From an uncultured Candidatus Saccharibacteria bacterium (GTDB taxonomy: Bacteria > Patescibacteriota > Minisyncoccia > Phycocordibacterales > UBA918), in NCBI GenBank assembly GCA_964350985.1, contig CAYGLK010000001.1, positions 91,018 to 155,017 of the forward strand: a stretch of 64,000 nt of DNA, written 5' to 3'. Positions within the stretch are counted from its first letter, which is position 1, and each line of letters begins with the position of its first letter. Below are positions 1,339 through 5,978 of the stretch, in pieces. The notes under the pieces were generated by a model that was given only the letters and a program-made list of their open reading frames with translations, searched no databases and was not told the origin of the DNA. Position numbers and translations under genes: made by a program.

Positions 1339-1692
1339 ATGCACCCGCCTAAGGAGAGCGTTGTGAAAGAAGACATCATTAAAGCTGATGGTATTCGTTT
1401 TTCTGTTTCAGACGACGGCAAAGAAGTTGGTCGAGCCTATCTTTATCCCTTAAAAAATGATCTACATTCACGTCCTTTCGGACTACTTGAAGATGTTTAC
1501 GTGGATGAGAAATATAGAGGCAAGGGGGTAGCAAGTCAGCTTTTGGAAGCCGTAACGCAAAAGGCCAAGGCTTTGAATTGCTATAAGCTGATAGCTACAA
1601 GTCGCAATGACGGCACTCGACAAGCAGTCCATGACTGGTACTTGAGATTAGGTTTTGCGGATTATGGAACCGAGTTTCGAATCAATTTCTAA
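1339..1692 (+). CDS. GNAT family N-acetyltransferase
   Basis: Acetyl-CoA binding motif A, VDEKYRGKGVASQLLEAV, followed by the typical C-terminal Y-containing segment. Confidence 0.6.
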   Translation: MHPPKESVVKEDIIKADGIRFSVSDDGKEVGRAYLYPLKNDLHSRPFGLLEDVYVDEKYRGKGVASQLLEAVTQKAKALNCYKLIATSRNDGTRQAVHDWYLRLGFADYGTEFRINF

Positions 1693-1750: not shown

Positions 1751-2392
1751 ATGTATACTCACTTTGTGAAAAAAGCCGAATACACTATTGGTATCGATGA
1801 AGCAGGTCGGGGTCCTTTGGCTGGGCCGGTGGCTGTCGGCGTTGCTTTGGTGAAGAGTAATTTTTCCTGGACTAAGGAACTACCTGGAGTTAATGATAGT
1901 AAAAAATTATCAGCGTCTAAGCGAGATGATATTTTTCTTAAAGCCAAGCAGTTAAAAAAGAAAGGTTTGCTTGATTATCAAGTAGTACTAATGTCAGCTC
2001 AAATTATTGATCGTATTGGAATTGTGCCAGCCATTACTAAAGCGATGCATCAGGGTTTGAAAAAAATAATGCAACGCTCTGGTCTAAAAGAATATCAGGT
2101 GTTTGTAAAGCTAGATGGGGGGCTAAGGGCACCGGCTACATATATAAGTCAAGAAACTATTATAAAAGGAGATGCTAAAGAGAAAGTTATCGGACTGGCG
2201 TCAATTATGGCCAAGGTAACTCGGGATCAATACATGGAGAAGTTGGCTGTGAAGAAAGAGTTTGTTGTCTATGATTTTGCAAAACATAAAGGTTACGGCA
2301 CCAAGATCCATAGGGAATCCATTGCCGGAAATGGGCTTTCTTTGGAACATAGGGTTAGTTTCTGCCGGAATATAAAGCTTAAGGCTAATTAG
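1751..2392 (+). CDS. rnhB: ribonuclease HII
   Basis: IGIDEAGRGPLAGPV active-site motif at the N-terminus. Length 213 aa. Confidence 0.85.
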   Translation: MYTHFVKKAEYTIGIDEAGRGPLAGPVAVGVALVKSNFSWTKELPGVNDSKKLSASKRDDIFLKAKQLKKKGLLDYQVVLMSAQIIDRIGIVPAITKAMHQGLKKIMQRSGLKEYQVFVKLDGGLRAPATYISQETIIKGDAKEKVIGLASIMAKVTRDQYMEKLAVKKEFVVYDFAKHKGYGTKIHRESIAGNGLSLEHRVSFCRNIKLKAN

Positions 2393-2518: not shown

Positions 2519-2800
2519 ATGGTAATTCGAATGCGGCACACGCGGTCTCACACCGCTAATAGACGTTCTCATCATGCTTTAACAGCGCCTAATATGGCTG
2601 TGTGTAAGAATTGTGAAGGACACTATCGTCAACATCACATGTGTTTAAATTGTGGTTTTTATAAAGGTAGAGTTGTAACTGACCTACTAACGAAAAAGAA
2701 AGAACGAGAAGAACGAATCTCTAAGAAGAAAGAAGCGATTGGTGGGCAAGCAGCTGGTGATGAATCTCCAGTAGCTGAAGTAGAATCAAAGACAAAATAA
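2519..2800 (+). CDS. rpmF: 50S ribosomal protein L32 with a Lys/Glu-rich C-terminal extension
   Basis: MVIRMRHTRSHTANRRSHHALTAP...CKNCEGHYRQHHMCLNCGFYKGRVV matches the L32 zinc-ribbon core. Start is at an internal Met of the ORF-track ORF. A ~35-aa KKKEREERISKKKE tail follows. Confidence 0.75.
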   Translation: MVIRMRHTRSHTANRRSHHALTAPNMAVCKNCEGHYRQHHMCLNCGFYKGRVVTDLLTKKKEREERISKKKEAIGGQAAGDESPVAEVESKTK

Positions 2801-2918: not shown

Positions 2919-3821
2919 ATGGCAAATAGGCACCTTTCGCGCAGTATAGTTCTTCAAGCACTCTTTGAGTGGGATTTAAATGCAATTGATAAAAAGGAAG
3001 TTATAAATATTTTAGATAGAAATATCGAAGAGTTTGCTCAAAACAAGACGGACCGACCTTTTATGGAGAAGCTCTTAAATGGGATTCTTGGAAAGCAAAC
3101 AGAACTAGATTTAGTAATTACTAAAGCTGCACCTGAGTGGCCTATTGATCGTATCTCTCCAGTTGATCGAAATATTTTAAGACTAGGATTGTTTGAACTC
3201 CTTTTCTCTGAGCGTTCTGAAGTGCCAGCTAAAGTGGCGATAAATGAAGCGATTGAATTAGCTAAGCAATTTGGGGGTGATAACAGTAGTCGTTTTGTAA
3301 ACGGTGTACTCGGCGCTGTCTATAAAGAGATCGGTGAGCCAGGAAAAGCTGAGACAAGCAAGCAGCGTAAAAAAGACGTTCCGTTTGATCAGATGCCAAT
3401 TGAAAGACTTGCCGGTGCTGTGGTCTATGCTGAATCAGGTGGGCAGATGTACTTTGCTTTGGTCCACGATATCTTTGGTCACTGGACTCTGTCTAAGAGT
3501 AAGGTAGCTGAAAACGAGACTGTTGAACAAGGAGCTGTACGAGCTCTTAAGGAAGAGATTGGTTTGCCAGTAGAGATTGAAGCTGAATTAGGTAATAATG
3601 AATATATCGCCACTCAGCCAGAAAAAGGAAAGGTACGAAAGCAAGTACACTATTTCTTAGCTAAAGCCCCGTATCAAGACATTGCTTTGGCAAAGAAAGG
3701 CGGCTTAGATGACGCTCGATGGTTTAGAGTTTCTGATATTTTGAACCTTAATTTCTATGAGGATATTCTACCGATTGTAACCAAGGCTATTACCATGTTG
3801 GTTGGCAGAAGCGGCAAATAG
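2919..3821 (+). CDS. nusB: transcription antitermination factor NusB fused to a C-terminal Nudix hydrolase domain
   Basis: N-terminal ~148 aa (MANRHLSRSIVLQALFEWDL ... FVNGVLGAVYKE) is a complete NusB. The C-terminal ~140 aa carries a Nudix box, ETVEQGAVRALKEEIGL. Start is at an internal Met of the ORF. Confidence 0.75.
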   Translation: MANRHLSRSIVLQALFEWDLNAIDKKEVINILDRNIEEFAQNKTDRPFMEKLLNGILGKQTELDLVITKAAPEWPIDRISPVDRNILRLGLFELLFSERSEVPAKVAINEAIELAKQFGGDNSSRFVNGVLGAVYKEIGEPGKAETSKQRKKDVPFDQMPIERLAGAVVYAESGGQMYFALVHDIFGHWTLSKSKVAENETVEQGAVRALKEEIGLPVEIEAELGNNEYIATQPEKGKVRKQVHYFLAKAPYQDIALAKKGGLDDARWFRVSDILNLNFYEDILPIVTKAITMLVGRSGK

Positions 3822-3853
3822 TGATAATCTCACCAAATAACCCCCAATTATCT

Positions 3854-4570
3854 ATGTCAGAAAGAAATCTTGAAGCGGATTTGTTGTCACTCCAGACCTT
3901 GGTTGGAGTTACTTTTAGTAACCCGAAGATCTTACTTTCAGCGGTAACACACCGATCTTATTTAAATGAACACCGCGAGGCTGACTGGGAGCATAACGAA
4001 AGATTGGAATTCTTGGGAGATGCGGTTTTAGAACTAGCAGTGACGACATTTTTGTTCGATAAATATCCTGATAAGCCAGAAGGAGAGCTAACAGCTATTA
4101 GAGCAGCTTTGGTAAACACAAACTCTCTGGCAGCAGCCTCAGAGCTTCTAGGTATCAATCAGTATCTCTTAATGTCTAAGGGTGAATCAAAAGATGAAGG
4201 GCGAGCACGACAGTATATCTTGGCAAATGTATTTGAGTCTTGTATTGGAGCTATCTATATTGACCAAGGTTACGAAGCTGCAAAGAAGTTTATTGCTGAC
4301 AGACTTTTTGGTAACACAGAAGAGATTGTTGCAAACAAAACCTGGCAAGACGCTAAGAGTCGCTTCCAAGAACTTTCACAAGACAGAGCTTCAATCACTC
4401 CAACATATGAGACCTTATCTCAAGATGGTCCCGACCATGACCGAGTCTTTACAGTAGGAGTATTTTTACGACATGAAAAAGTAGCGGAAGGAAAAGGTCG
4501 TTCGAAACAAGAAGCTGAACAAGAAGCAGCTAAAGCTGGTATCAAAGCTAAAGAGTGGGATCAGGAATAA
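3854..4570 (+). CDS. rnc: ribonuclease III
   Basis: RNase III signature ERLEFLGDAVLEL. C-terminal dsRBD-like region with an AEGKGRSKQEAEQEAA motif. Confidence 0.85.
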   Translation: MSERNLEADLLSLQTLVGVTFSNPKILLSAVTHRSYLNEHREADWEHNERLEFLGDAVLELAVTTFLFDKYPDKPEGELTAIRAALVNTNSLAAASELLGINQYLLMSKGESKDEGRARQYILANVFESCIGAIYIDQGYEAAKKFIADRLFGNTEEIVANKTWQDAKSRFQELSQDRASITPTYETLSQDGPDHDRVFTVGVFLRHEKVAEGKGRSKQEAEQEAAKAGIKAKEWDQE

Positions 4571-4591
4571 TTAAATATATTAAAAGTAAAA

Positions 4592-4618
4592 ATCCCCTTA
4601 AGGGGATTTTTACTTTTT
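4592..4618 (+). terminator. rho-independent terminator after rnc
   Basis: Hairpin AAATCCCCTTAAGGGGATTT followed by a T-tract. Confidence 0.6.
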
Positions 4619-4665
4619 AACCCACTACTTCAAGCTTTTGAGGCAAGTCTGCGTGTTATAATTTT

Positions 4666-5436
4666 TTGATGAATCTCAGCCGTTTAAACAAAACTACTAC
4701 TGGACTTACTTTGATTGAAATCTTGGTAGTGGTTGCGATTGTCGGTATTTTAGCTGCTGTTATTGCGGTAAATGCGATTGAGTCAGGAAAGCTGTCTCGA
4801 GATGCTAAAAGGCAAGCTGATCTTAGATCACTGCAAAGTGCTATTGAGTTGTATAAAAATAAAGAAGGAAGGTATCCTTATGGTTGCAATGCCCCTGAAG
4901 GATCATGGAGTGACGTATGGTCAGGGCAAATAACTAGCGTCGACTACAGATGTACAAATGGAAGTACACAGTATATTAACGGTTTGGCTCCTAAGTACAT
5001 TCCAACACTACCTCAAGATCAAAGGCTAAATGGAAATAATTCTGGTTATGTATACCGTACGAATGCCGCAGGAACTGTTTATAAATTGATGGCAATGAGA
5101 ACCGTGGAGGCAGATTCAGTAGATTATAATCATGAATTTAAGAGCTGTGACATTAGGCCGGATGTTGCTGGAAAATTACAAAATCTTGGGGCTTCGGGTG
5201 TGGATACTTCTGGATGGTGTGCCACAGCAACTGAAGCAGCTCTCGATCCAGCAGGACAAGTGTCAACATATAATCCTATACCAGGGTGTCGAATGAATAG
5301 TGGAATCAATGTAGCGGATAATGGTAATGGACGCTTTGAAATATCTTACGGTGTTTGGGGAGGTTTTGCTGAGGAGATGACTGGTCCACATAGAGCTGCC
5401 GAAGTAAGAGAGACTGCGAGAGTTATTTGTAAATAA
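4666..5436 (+). CDS. type IV pilin / prepilin-type N-terminal cleavage-methylation domain protein
   Basis: N-terminal TGLTLIEILVVVAIVGILAA is a class III signal peptide with the G/LTLIE motif. Cys pairs in the C-terminal globular part. Confidence 0.7.
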   Translation: MMNLSRLNKTTTGLTLIEILVVVAIVGILAAVIAVNAIESGKLSRDAKRQADLRSLQSAIELYKNKEGRYPYGCNAPEGSWSDVWSGQITSVDYRCTNGSTQYINGLAPKYIPTLPQDQRLNGNNSGYVYRTNAAGTVYKLMAMRTVEADSVDYNHEFKSCDIRPDVAGKLQNLGASGVDTSGWCATATEAALDPAGQVSTYNPIPGCRMNSGINVADNGNGRFEISYGVWGGFAEEMTGPHRAAEVRETARVICK

Positions 5437-5441
5437 ACAAT

Positions 5442-5978
5442 ATGAAAATTTTAAATAAAAAACTAAACGGCTTTACCTTGATTGAGATCATGGTAGTGAT
5501 CGGGATCATTGGTATCCTCTCCGCTGTACTTTTTGCTAACTTTAGTGAAGCGCGAATGCAAGCTCGTGATAAAGCACGTATGACAACTTTGAAAGAAATG
5601 CAATTAGCGATTGAATTTTATAAGGCGCAAAATGGCAGTTACCCAGTTGCGGGATGTGGAGCGGTCGGAGATGCTTTCTCTGGACCTGGTCCACGTGTCG
5701 GCTTGCTTACTTCATGTCCCCTTTATATTGAAGGATTAGTTCCGGATTTTATTTCCGTATTACCTAATGATCCTGTCTTTGAACAGGAAGCTGGAAGAGG
5801 ATATTACTATGCGTCTAATGAAACGAGTTATAAATTAATGTCGCTAGATAGTGTAGAAGTTTTAACTGTGTCACTAGGTGATGAGTTTGCTCGCTGTCCT
5901 AGTGCAACCGGTGCTTGTTCTGGCGGAATCCCAACAAACACCTACGCGGTCTATAGTTCTGGAGCAGAAGCTTGGTAA
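5442..5978 (+). CDS. type IV pilin / pseudopilin (paralog of the upstream gene)
   Basis: NGFTLIEIMVVIGIIGILSA prepilin motif. Shares the QARD...AIE.YK..G.YP core with the preceding pilin. Confidence 0.7.
   Translation: MKILNKKLNGFTLIEIMVVIGIIGILSAVLFANFSEARMQARDKARMTTLKEMQLAIEFYKAQNGSYPVAGCGAVGDAFSGPGPRVGLLTSCPLYIEGLVPDFISVLPNDPVFEQEAGRGYYYASNETSYKLMSLDSVEVLTVSLGDEFARCPSATGACSGGIPTNTYAVYSSGAEAW

Follow-up and report, generated by a model that had tools for sequence, protein, structure and literature searches.

NusB, the rRNA antitermination factor that binds boxA RNA and S10 (NusE), is among the most conserved single-domain bacterial transcription factors, and its canonical length is ~140 aa. 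To our knowledge, only one fusion of a NusB-type RNA-binding domain to an rRNA-acting enzyme domain is well known, namely RsmB (Sun), the 16S rRNA methyltransferase with a NusB-like domain at its N-terminus. The gene described here likewise joins a NusB-type domain to an enzyme fold. Its partner, however, is a Nudix domain and not a methyltransferase, and its NusB part is orthologous to NusB itself, whereas the RsmB domain is a NusB-like paralogue.

Nudix domains are marked by the box GX5EX7REUXEEXGU, in which the first Glu of REUXEE is a Mg2+ ligand. The described enzymes closest to the Nudix half of the fusion are the NUDT2-class Ap4A/Ap6A hydrolases, i.e. Aquifex aq_158 (3I7U), Thermus thermophilus Ndx1 (1VC8), the Caenorhabditis elegans enzyme (1KTG), Chlamydia CT771 (4MPO), Mycobacterium tuberculosis Rv2985/MutT1 (9CXX) and human NUDT2 (4IJX). 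In Ap4A hydrolases the Lys of the PKG motif, a loop-5 Tyr and a C-terminal Tyr/Phe bind phosphate and adenine (PMC4734340). Nudix enzymes can also act on RNA 5' ends: the Ap4A hydrolase NUDT2 converts ppp-RNA to p-RNA (PMC8616924), and RppH decaps NpnN-RNA (PMC7044304). A Nudix domain may also bind without cleaving. NUDT9 is inactive once its first REUXEE Glu has been replaced, yet the NUDT9-H domain of human TRPM2, which is without that Glu, still binds ADPR, while its invertebrate orthologues are canonical and active (PMC6461439). In NrtR, too, a Nudix domain that binds a ligand is joined to a non-enzymatic partner, in that case a wHTH domain instead of NusB.

The fusion gene and its neighbourhood

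The window, by which is meant the whole 64-kb stretch of DNA that was analysed, contains the features listed in Table 1. ORF prediction and direct reading of the sequence agree on a single unbroken frame of 300 aa from the ATG at 2919 to the TAG at 3819-3821. Pfam recognizes NusB at aa 7-136 (5.8e-37; 127.5 bits against the PF01029 threshold of 23.1) and NUDIX (PF00293) at aa 165-281 (1.3e-12; 48.3 bits, threshold 21.1). Homologues back the start at 2919, as all are ~300 aa long and share the same N-terminal residues, and a protein on a 528-kb NCBI contig (P0001) is 100% identical. The initial annotation read a NusB of 148 aa that continues in frame into a Nudix domain of ~140 aa. The second domain is there as described (aa 161-300; PF00293, 1.3e-12), but the NusB part is shorter, ~139 aa, and a linker of 21 aa follows it.

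Table 1. Features of the nusB::nudix locus, with positions in the 64-kb window
Feature	Position	Strand	Remarks
rpmF (ribosomal protein L32)	2522..2800	+	Upstream; Pfam Ribosomal_L32p
NusB-Nudix fusion CDS, complete	2919..3821	+	300 aa and TAG stop; Pfam NusB and NUDIX
NusB domain	2919..3335	+	aa 1-139, all-helical; conserved R4, R8 and F126-V-N-G-V-L motif
Linker	3336..3398	+	aa 140-160 (21 aa); disordered in the model, conserved motifs
Nudix-fold domain	3399..3818	+	aa 161-300; Ap4A/Ap6A-hydrolase (NUDT2-like) class
Degenerate Nudix box	3498..3566	+	aa 194-216; from direct reading, family alignments and parsimony
rnc (RNase III)	3821..4570	+	Directly downstream; Pfam Ribonucleas_3_3, Ribonuclease_3, dsrm
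Hairpin	4582..4617		Just after rnc; perfect 16-bp palindrome with A/T runs on its flanks

The GTG start of rnc overlaps the stop of the fusion gene (an alternative ATG lies at 3845), and the two genes are probably co-transcribed. The hairpin that follows rnc would be a terminator-like end of this nusB::nudix-rnc unit. The arrangement is not peculiar to this genome: in related loci rnc lies directly downstream in 76 cases, overlaps or lies within ~600 nt in two more, and in three there is no room downstream, while the L32 gene is upstream in 75 of 80. Even a divergent locus (L081) has L32 upstream and rnc downstream. The conserved gene order is rnhB-rpmF-nusB::nudix-rnc-smc. Within the 64-kb window no Rfam matches of any kind, rRNA included, and no tRNAs were found, and boxA-like sequences occur at chance level (12 observed, 11.7 expected).

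The NusB half

The N-terminal half is a bona fide NusB, by sequence and by predicted fold. Full-length aa 1-139 score above the cutoff of the NCBIfam equivalog TIGR01951 (132.4 bits against 88.35, covering aa 4-137) and match NusB structures in the PDB by sequence at 2e-20 to 5e-16. The AF2 model has seven helices across aa 4-138 (pLDDT ~85-97), which is the all-helical fold of the NusB proteins of Escherichia coli, Aquifex aeolicus, M. tuberculosis and Thermotoga maritima; Foldseek places it with 3r2d_B (TMt 0.85), 3imq_A (TMt 0.83) and 1eyv (TMt 0.82). Conservation extends to the N-terminus, which is Arg-rich, and to the FVNGVL motif of NusB. In 79 species 53 of the 139 NusB sites are invariant, and little or no variation is seen in the fusion family at R4, R8, F16, F126, N128 and G129. 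In the alignment F16 lies opposite Y18 of E. coli NusB and N122 opposite D118, positions which we take to have functional roles. The RsmB equivalog models reach 31-61 bits against cutoffs of 269-540, over the NusB part only, and a methyltransferase domain was not found. The protein differs from the canonical one-domain NusB in the ~140-aa Nudix domain carried on the 21-aa linker, and in the position of its gene between rpmF and rnc.

Spread of the fusion

Are the two halves truly one gene? Proteins of ~300 aa with both Pfam domains form >240 clusters, the best 120 of which are 83-100% identical to the one described here, all ~300 aa long and all with both domains. Matches were found in 255 GTDB species genomes, and the fused ORF is present in all of the best 80, the closed chromosome CP060229.1 included. 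It is a single full-length ORF in 78 of these 80 loci; of the remaining two, L022 is truncated where its contig ends and L070 has an ORF without roughly the first 50 residues. More distantly, NusB is also present in 57 of the 150 best matches to the Nudix part among cluster representatives (50% identity), at Nudix identities as low as 29-30%, and a profile of divergent members gave 643 matches, the top 120 being fusions without exception. Taxon labels in the profile search are solely 'Candidatus Paceibacterota' or 'Patescibacteria group'. The fusion is old, stably inherited and clade-wide in the Paceibacterota (Parcubacteria, candidate phyla radiation).

The initial annotation favoured a genuine fusion over a frameshift, proposed a survey of NusB lengths in relatives, and named separate nusB and nudix genes in high-quality relatives as the case that would tell against it. 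The survey agrees with a genuine fusion: the ~300-aa protein recurs uninterrupted in 79 independently assembled species genomes, the closed chromosome included, and the opposing case is contradicted by these loci and by the profile search. A sequencing or assembly error that joined two genes by a frameshift is thus extremely improbable. Evidence in its favour was not found, the shortened L070 standing alone among the 80 loci, while all of the 79 genomes, and hundreds of clusters from NCBI, JGI, ENA and Logan, share the in-frame junction and the conserved motifs of the linker. The artefact was rejected on the 80-locus survey and the profile search with divergent members. A few short metagenomic fragments look Nudix-only. 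Two close Nudix-only matches were examined as possible split genes; the contig ends within the first, and the second lies on a short, chimeric-looking contig, so that neither is evidence of a split. True stand-alone relatives of ~140 aa (30-38% identity, e.g. P0245) are found in unrelated gene contexts, and fission back to two genes was not seen among the relatives surveyed. Database entries for the fusions are annotated just 'NusB', and full-text literature searches on NusB, Nudix and Patescibacteria/Candidate Phyla Radiation gave no description of the NusB-Nudix architecture.

The linker

The linker is conserved both in length, 20-22 aa in 73 of 79 species, and in its motifs, which are G139-E-P-G-K143, a basic run K148-K152, V154-P-F156 and M159-P160. 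In the AF2 model (mean pLDDT 90.2, pTM 0.53) pLDDT falls below 50 at aa 142-151. No fixed NusB-Nudix interface is seen in the model and therefore no allosteric coupling is visible. The protein is predicted to consist of two independent domains joined by a flexible, partly basic tether of ~21 residues. An internal start at M159, which would yield a separate Nudix protein, was considered, but no Shine-Dalgarno-like sequence precedes it. M159 is conserved in 78 of the 79 species and is hydrophobic-variable in deeper members, a pattern more likely to be structural than that of a start codon.

Fold and ligand-site residues of the Nudix half

The C-terminal half has the alpha/beta/alpha sandwich of Nudix proteins, and most of aa 161-300 is modelled with pLDDT >90. 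A Foldseek search of the whole model against the PDB gave 525 matches at E <= 1e-3, a total that includes NusB structures, and dozens of these are Nudix proteins. The closest is Aquifex 3i7u_A (E 7.9e-10, TMt 0.88, rmsd 2.3), and the Nudix domain of NrtR is also among the matches (2.6e-8). By sequence, the PDB matches of the Nudix part are Rv2985/MutT1, Ndx1, the C. elegans Ap4A hydrolase and CT771. The best matches from sequence and structure together are 3i7u, 9cxx, 1vc8, 1ktg and 4mpo, and also 4ijx. The fold class is thus that of the Ap4A/Ap6A hydrolases, which fits Ap4A, NpnN or a 5'-polyphosphate as ligand.

The likeness to the NUDT2 class extends to the W-T-x-x-K-G motif and to a strand with basic residues (K238/R240/K241), and there are tyrosines which align with adenine-stacking positions and may have that role here. 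H188-W-T-L-S-K193-S aligns with H-W-T-P-P-K-G of 1kt9, and in the same alignment K193, K241 and Y280 correspond to K36, K83 and Y121 of the C. elegans enzyme; Y229 aligns with a Tyr common to Ndx1, MutT1 and CT771. Invariant sites number 39 of 140 in the 79 species and include W189, K193, R208, E213, Y229, K241, Y245 and Y280 as well as the acidic residues D184, D264 and D282. Among divergent fusions W189 is kept in 40 of 40 and K193 in 39 of 40. Judged from these alignments, the residues kept include the counterparts of those which in Ap4A hydrolases contact the phosphates and stack on the base, although the conserved aromatics may instead be core residues and not ligand contacts. The fusion differs from the class in that its box is without the first Gly and the first REUXEE Glu, in that it is joined to NusB and does not stand alone, and in identity, which is just 24-28%.

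Which ligand would such a domain have? The initial annotation suggested hydrolysis of (p)ppGpp, Ap4A, NAD-cap or 8-oxo-dGTP. The Ap4A-hydrolase fold class supports a part of this, but with a box that is not intact hydrolysis itself is doubtful. Removal of (p)ppGpp or of an NAD cap finds no specific support, the NudC and RppH models scoring far below their cutoffs: the RppH models NF001936 and NF001937 give 15.0 and 13.2 bits against 118 and 139. A specificity for (p)ppGpp, NAD-cap or ADP-ribose was set aside, as the NCBIfam models for NudC, NudE and NadM-Nudix give marginal scores.

The domain might have no role at RNA ends at all, and serve instead as a small-molecule module for the sensing or hydrolysis of free Ap4A/NpnN or oxidised NTPs, either an alarmone sensor that modulates NusB, or an uncoupled housekeeping Nudix enzyme that was fused to a neighbouring gene during genome reduction. 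The closest structures are indeed enzymes of free nucleotides (Ap4A/Ap6A hydrolases, MutT1/Rv2985), and the Nudix domain carries a net negative charge (mean -6.7), unlike typical RNA-binding surfaces. The predicted independence of the domains and the high compaction of Patescibacteria genomes point the same way, as does the fact that Ap4A hydrolase genes adjoin ribosome-biogenesis genes elsewhere (apaH/ksgA in E. coli, yqeK/rsfS/yqeH in Bacillus). A housekeeping hydrolase, however, should have retained its catalytic box, which this one has not, and were the domain a sensor regulating NusB, one would look for an interface between the two domains, but none is predicted (pTM 0.53). No fission is seen, moreover, and as the fusion persists with its linker motifs to ~30% Nudix identity, selection on the linkage itself can be argued. 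We consider a small-molecule module improbable.

State and evolution of the Nudix box

The initial annotation called the Nudix box intact. Direct reading and alignments to 1kt9, 1vc8 and 9cxx show otherwise: set against the consensus, aa 194-216 read S-KVAEN-E-TVEQGAV-R-A-L-K-E-E-I-G-L, with Ser194 in place of the Gly at position 1 and Ala209 (codon GCT, 3543-3545) in place of the first Glu of REUXEE at position 16. E200, R208, E212, E213, G215 and L216 are kept. This S/A state is common to 113 of 120 close clusters. In the 79 species position 209 is Ala in 39, Glu in 33, Lys in three, Ser in two, and Thr and Val in one each, and the canonical box is kept in 33 of the 79 (~40% of lineages). 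Among close orthologues, L013 and L014 have a canonical box (GEREEEG, against SERAEEG here) and are 83-84% identical. In deeper members Lys also occupies box positions 19 and 20, e.g. GEKKEKD and GTKKQKG.

Parsimony gives G/E/E as the ancestral state and 11 steps at position 209, against a domain mean of 9.4 and none at R208 and E213. By this reconstruction the ancestral box was canonical and the first REUXEE Glu changed about 11 times independently; the catalytic glutamates drift freely across the fusion family. The broken box (RE to RA, G to S) and this family-wide drift make hydrolysis doubtful in the present lineage. The rest of the Nudix domain appears, from its sequence conservation, to be under strong purifying selection. 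Per-domain dN/dS values (NusB 0.016, Nudix 0.017) come from four unsaturated pairs and are indicative only; dS could be computed for 227 of 3081 pairs, four of them usable, and since synonymous sites are saturated we relied on site invariance and parsimony.

Could the domain nevertheless be a fully active tethered hydrolase here too, an RppH/NUDT2-like RNA 5'-pyrophosphohydrolase, an NpnN-decapping enzyme or an Ap4A hydrolase, in which another acidic residue compensates for the lost Glu209? E200, R208, E212, E213 and G215 are kept, R208 and E213 without any change; the invariant D184, D264 and D282 might compensate; the S194/A209 state is stable over a large clade and does not decay further; and the fold class includes enzymes of ppp-RNA (PMC8616924). 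Yet the residue lost is the one that coordinates the catalytic Mg2+ and whose replacement inactivates NUDT9 (PMC6461439), and position 209 evolves like an average site, having changed to A, K, S, T or V in 11 steps. The Lys at positions 19 and 20 of deeper members is incompatible with a canonical metal site, and canonical catalysis can therefore not be what is conserved in the domain. Full activity in this lineage is, on balance, unlikely.

With catalytic residues adrift and many surface and core positions and linker motifs invariant, one may ask whether the domain has any ligand, or is a purely structural subunit, a scaffold for protein-protein or protein-RNA contacts in the rRNA antitermination complex. 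There is a precedent in SuhB, an inositol-monophosphatase fold that is non-catalytic in the E. coli rrnTAC, and the Nudix fold is used elsewhere for non-catalytic recognition, e.g. in NrtR. Such a subunit, however, would not account for the invariant K193, K241, Y229 and Y280, which by alignment correspond to phosphate- and base-binding residues of Ap4A hydrolases, nor for the invariant R208 and E213. A perfect canonical box in ~40% of lineages also speaks against it, because it implies that selection for chemistry persists there. A SuhB-like role with no nucleotide ligand therefore seems very unlikely.

Proposed role

The reading we prefer, held tentatively and with a little less than even confidence, is that the Nudix half is a binder of polyphosphate nucleotides or RNA 5' ends, mounted on boxA-bound NusB, probably hydrolytic in relatives with a canonical box and probably impaired here. 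In this lineage it is more likely that the domain binds a nucleotide polyphosphate than that it cleaves one. The ligand would be a nucleoside 5'-polyphosphate, either free NpnN (Ap4A) or the ppp/Np4 5' end of an RNA. The most likely target may be the 5' end of the same pre-rRNA transcript that NusB holds, given the flexible tether to a NusB that clamps the boxA leader at the RNA polymerase exit. In canonical-box relatives the Nudix domain would probably hydrolyse the RNA 5' end, as RppH and NUDT2 do, and this hydrolysis would feed processing of the pre-rRNA leader together with the co-transcribed RNase III. The comparison with RppH and NUDT2 is a functional analogy only: the Nudix domain of the fusion is tethered to the holder of the nascent 5' leader, and it is not a member of the RppH family (13-15 bits against 118-139), with the first REUXEE Glu missing.

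In the RALKEE lineage the domain probably has little or no catalysis left and would act mainly as a binder or reader, although residual or alternative catalysis is possible because E200, E212 and E213 remain. This drift appears to parallel the change from enzyme to binder in TRPM2 NUDT9-H. In both, one orthologous family of fusions has some lineages with a canonical box and others without the first REUXEE Glu. They differ in class (ADP-ribose versus Ap4A) and partner (an ion channel versus NusB), and binding by a domain without the Glu has been shown for TRPM2, whereas for the NusB fusion we infer it.

Significance

In bacteria of the candidate phyla radiation, with their minimal genomes and their unusual ribosome biogenesis, genes that stay fused are informative. 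A clade-wide fusion of NusB with a Nudix domain can be read as a 'Rosetta stone' that links rRNA antitermination either to the chemistry of RNA 5' ends or to alarmones of the Ap4A type, a connection that has been suspected but is mechanistically not established. The hundreds of database entries named just 'NusB' miss half of the protein.

It is conceivable, though we regard it as doubtful, that the Paceibacterota have a two-headed NusB, in which NusB clamps boxA and the Nudix domain reads, or in canonical lineages removes, the 5'-ppp or NpnN of the same transcript. If true, antitermination would be coupled to the status of the 5' end and to the way in which the co-transcribed RNase III processes the leader, and the fusion would be the first known antitermination factor with an RNA 5'-end module, one caught midway in a transition from enzyme to reader. 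Close orthologues with a canonical or a degenerate box constitute a natural experiment on these two states.

A fusion gene found in many genomes

The NusB-Nudix ORF consists of one uninterrupted frame (see table), and each half is readily recognized. The Pfam matches are to NusB over aa 7-136 (E 5.8e-37) and to NUDIX over aa 165-281 (E 1.3e-12), and TIGR01951, the nusB equivalog of NCBIfam, gives 132.4 bits (cutoff 88.35). In PDB sequence searches, the N-terminal half matches NusB structures (2e-20 to 5e-16) and the C-terminal half the Nudix enzymes Rv2985/MutT1, Ndx1, C. elegans Ap4A hydrolase and CT771 (5e-7 to 2e-5). These matches bear out the initial annotation, which proposed both domains in a single ORF. 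No second NusB copy or related Nudix ORF was found within the 64-kb window.

Could a frameshift artefact have joined two genes, the alternative raised in the initial annotation? The best 120 protein clusters (83-100% identity), from NCBI, JGI, ENA and Logan assemblies with contigs up to ~1 Mb, are all ~300 aa and carry both Pfam domains. With each GTDB species represented by one genome, a scan turned up a relative in 255; the 80 best of these (63-93% identity) include the closed chromosome CP060229.1, and 78 of the 80 loci have a single full-length uninterrupted ORF. One exception, L022, is truncated by a contig end. When the Nudix part alone was searched against 1.84 billion cluster representatives (50% identity), NusB was N-terminal of Nudix in 57 of the 150 best matches, with Nudix identity down to 29-30%. 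A profile from twelve divergent members retrieved 643 proteins (E <= 1e-10), and ~300-aa fusions account for all of the top 120. The same fusion recurs across clusters and species genomes; the artefact is refuted, and the fusion is a real gene.

Several atypical forms were also seen. The two close 'Nudix-only' matches that were examined give no evidence of a split gene: one is truncated by a contig end, and the other is on a short, chimeric-looking contig. The L070 ORF (JAWKSQ010000001.1, ~4001-4899 of the locus) starts at query residue 51 and lacks about the first 50 residues, the sole N-terminally short case among the 80 loci; it may be a pseudogene, or the product of a frameshift or sequencing error. 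A few metagenomic proteins (P0125, P0128, P0142) resemble internally deleted fusions, e.g. NusB residues 1-62 straight onto Nudix, and are probably misassemblies or decayed copies. P0212 (577 aa) is longer: its partial NusB (aa 317-417) and Nudix (aa 423-545) are preceded by ~300 additional residues that match no Pfam family, and it may be either a triple fusion or the product of merged gene calls.

Gene neighbourhood

Features of the fusion gene and its surroundings (window positions)
Feature	Position	Strand	Remarks
ORF of 139 aa	879-1298		follows a membrane-protein ORF and precedes GNAT; without Pfam matches at E <= 1e-3
GNAT acetyltransferase	1339-1692		before RNase HII
RNase HII	1751-2392		after GNAT
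Ribosomal protein L32	2522-2800		directly before the fusion gene
NusB-Nudix fusion ORF	ATG 2919 to TAG 3819-3821	+	300 aa
Interdomain linker	3336-3398		aa 140-160; conserved motifs across 79 species
RNase III (rnc)	3821-4570		start overlaps stop of the fusion gene
Perfect 16-bp palindrome	4582-4617		AAAAGTAAAAATCCCC-TTAA-GGGGATTTTTACTTTT; A/T runs on both sides, directly after rnc; candidate bidirectional intrinsic terminator
Two type-IV-pilin-like genes	4666-5978		N-terminal methylation motif PF07963; between rnc and smc
SMC (smc)			after the pilin-like genes

The rnc gene is directly downstream of the fusion in 76 loci and overlaps it or lies within ~600 nt in 2 more, while 3 loci leave no room for it; L32 is upstream in 75 of 80. 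At L081, a locus whose Nudix is only 30% identical, the order L32 - fusion - RNase III - SMC is kept. Because this L32/RNase III order is conserved, the fusion gene sits in an RNA-processing neighbourhood and is probably co-transcribed with it. As smc is closer behind rnc in many relatives, the two pilin-like genes look like a lineage-specific insertion into the conserved order. No tRNA, rRNA or other Rfam family was detected in the 64 kb at the gathering threshold; the lack of tRNA genes over this length is noticeable for a genome of ~0.5-1 Mb.

Two domains and a conserved linker

An AlphaFold2 model from a 46-sequence alignment (mean pLDDT 90.2, pTM only 0.53) shows NusB as helices spanning aa 4-138 and Nudix as an alpha/beta/alpha sandwich at aa 161-299, with pLDDT < 50 at aa 142-151. 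The model predicts two well-folded domains with no confident mutual orientation. Among the 79 species, G139-E-P-G-K143 is invariant, the basic K/R-rich run K148-K152 is kept, V154-P-F156 and M159-P160 are conserved, and linker length is 20-22 aa in 73. To judge from the alignment, the linker is more than a random spacer; its conserved motifs point to a short linear motif or to a basic patch in contact with RNA, and not to passive spacing.

Within the NusB domain, N122 (window 3282-3284) aligns with D118 of E. coli NusB. This is the same change as in nusB101 (D118N), the variant crystallised in 3IMQ; nusB101 reportedly has raised affinity for boxA RNA.

Class of the Nudix domain

Foldseek searches of the PDB place the Nudix domain nearest to diadenosine-polyphosphate hydrolases: Aquifex aq_158 (3I7U; E 7.9e-10, TM 0.88 on target, rmsd 2.3 Å), M. 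tuberculosis Rv2985/M. smegmatis MutT1, T. thermophilus Ndx1 (an Ap6A hydrolase), C. elegans Ap4A hydrolase, Chlamydia CT771 and human NUDT2. In HMMER alignments with the C. elegans enzyme, H188-W189-T190-x-x-K193-S194 is opposite H-W-T-P-P-K36-G37, E200/R208/A209/E212/E213 opposite E43/R51/E52/E55/E56, and K241, Y245, W268 and Y280 correspond to K83, Y87, W109 and Y121; Y229 aligns with a Tyr common to Ndx1, MutT1 and CT771. Ap4A hydrolases hold the P1 phosphate by His, the 'PKG' Lys and a loop-5 Tyr, and adenine stacks between the loop-5 Tyr and a C-terminal Tyr/Phe (PMC4734340). The RppH, NudC, NudE and MutT models all score far under their curated cutoffs; the domain falls outside every named equivalog.

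Two other readings are a sensor of free Ap4A/NpnN and a housekeeping enzyme that was joined to NusB by chance. Either would agree with the nearest structures and with a domain that is net acidic (charge -6.7), but both seem rather unlikely, as a sensor would be expected to form an interdomain interface and a housekeeping enzyme to keep its box.

A Nudix domain of this subfamily (39% identical to the Nudix part of the query) also occurs in P0204 (379 aa), where its partners are a sigma-70 region-4 HTH and a DnaA C-terminal HTH domain. This is a second, independent case in which such a Nudix domain has been joined to a module that binds nucleic acid or is related to transcription.

Drift of the catalytic box

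The box RALKEEIGL, initially described as intact, is degenerate. Set against GX5EX7REUXEEXGU, aa 194-216 read S-KVAEN-E-TVEQGAV-R-A-L-K-E-E-I-G-L, with Ser194 in place of the first Gly and Ala209 in place of the first Glu of the REUXEE core. This S194/A209 state is common to 113 of 120 close clusters; canonical E..RE..EE is kept in 5 of these 120, in 5/40 cluster representatives (50% identity) and in 53/119 divergent profile matches. In the query and 39 divergent full-length fusions taken together, box position 16 (aa 209) is V9/E8/K8/A7, position 19 (aa 212) E21/K6/D6 and position 20 (aa 213) E34/K5. The seven signature positions in some of these fusions read GEKKEKD, GTKKQKG or GLKKSEN, which are incompatible with a canonical metal site. 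Near-invariant in the same set are W189 (40/40), K193, Y245 and W268 (39 each), D184 and Y280 (38 each) and T190 (37).

Across the 79 species, position 209 is A39/E33/K3/S2/T1/V1 and position 212 E66/D5/Q4/A3/S1; R208 and E213 never vary, and 39 of the 140 Nudix sites are invariant overall. Fitch parsimony on a neighbour-joining tree made without the box positions gives an ancestral G/E/E state, with 11 changes at position 209, 8 at 212, 4 at 194 and none at R208 or E213 (domain mean 9.4). Ser194 is found only in combination with Ala209, which suggests that Gly194 was released after loss of Glu209. Both domains are under strong purifying selection, as dN/dS is 0.016 (NusB) and 0.017 (Nudix) in the four usable pairs, synonymous sites being otherwise saturated. 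Read from these comparisons of sequence, it is the catalytic box that drifts and not the rest of the Nudix domain.

Possible function

The first Glu of REUXEE is a ligand of the catalytic Mg2+. NUDT9 has no activity when its box reads RILGEE, human TRPM2 NUDT9-H (RILRQE) binds ADP-ribose without hydrolysis, and invertebrate TRPM2 orthologues with canonical boxes are active (PMC6461439). The NusB-Nudix family has the same canonical-to-degenerate pattern, here among orthologues of a single fusion: the box is canonical in the ancestor and in many lineages, and others, including that of this genome, lack metal-ligand residues yet retain the fold. Putative phosphate- and base-binding residues are also kept in the box-degenerate lineages. 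Because metal ligands are lost while fold and putative binding residues persist, as in TRPM2, the Nudix domain would be a binder of nucleoside 5'-polyphosphate, with hydrolysis probably impaired in this genome's lineage. A fully active hydrolase here is possible, given that E200, E212 and E213 are still present, but is disfavoured by the NUDT9 precedent and the free drift of position 209. A purely structural, SuhB-like scaffold is also possible, but the invariant residues are those of the nucleotide site, and ~40% of lineages keep a perfect box.

The established role of NusB is to clamp the boxA of a nascent pre-rRNA 5' leader. For a nucleotide-binding Nudix domain tethered flexibly to such a factor, a local target would be the most economical, namely the 5' end of that transcript, bearing either ppp or an NpnN cap. 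Enzymes of this class are active on ends of this kind: NUDT2 converts ppp-RNA to p-RNA (PMC8616924), and RppH takes off NpnN caps (PMC7044304). Co-transcription with RNase III would be consistent with a role in leader processing; we infer both this role and the 5'-end target.

NusB and Nudix are well-known families, and the proteins are already public; where their sources name them, it is only as 'transcription antitermination factor NusB' of Candidatus Kaiserbacteria, Nomurabacteria, Paceibacterota or the Patescibacteria group. Full-text literature searches found no description of the NusB-Nudix architecture. Conceptual relatives are RsmB, where a NusB-like domain is joined to an rRNA methyltransferase; RppH and NUDT2, for RNA 5'-end chemistry; and TRPM2 NUDT9-H and NrtR, as Nudix domains turned ligand binders. 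The fusion would be of greater interest if the model of a tethered 5'-end reader/eraser is true.
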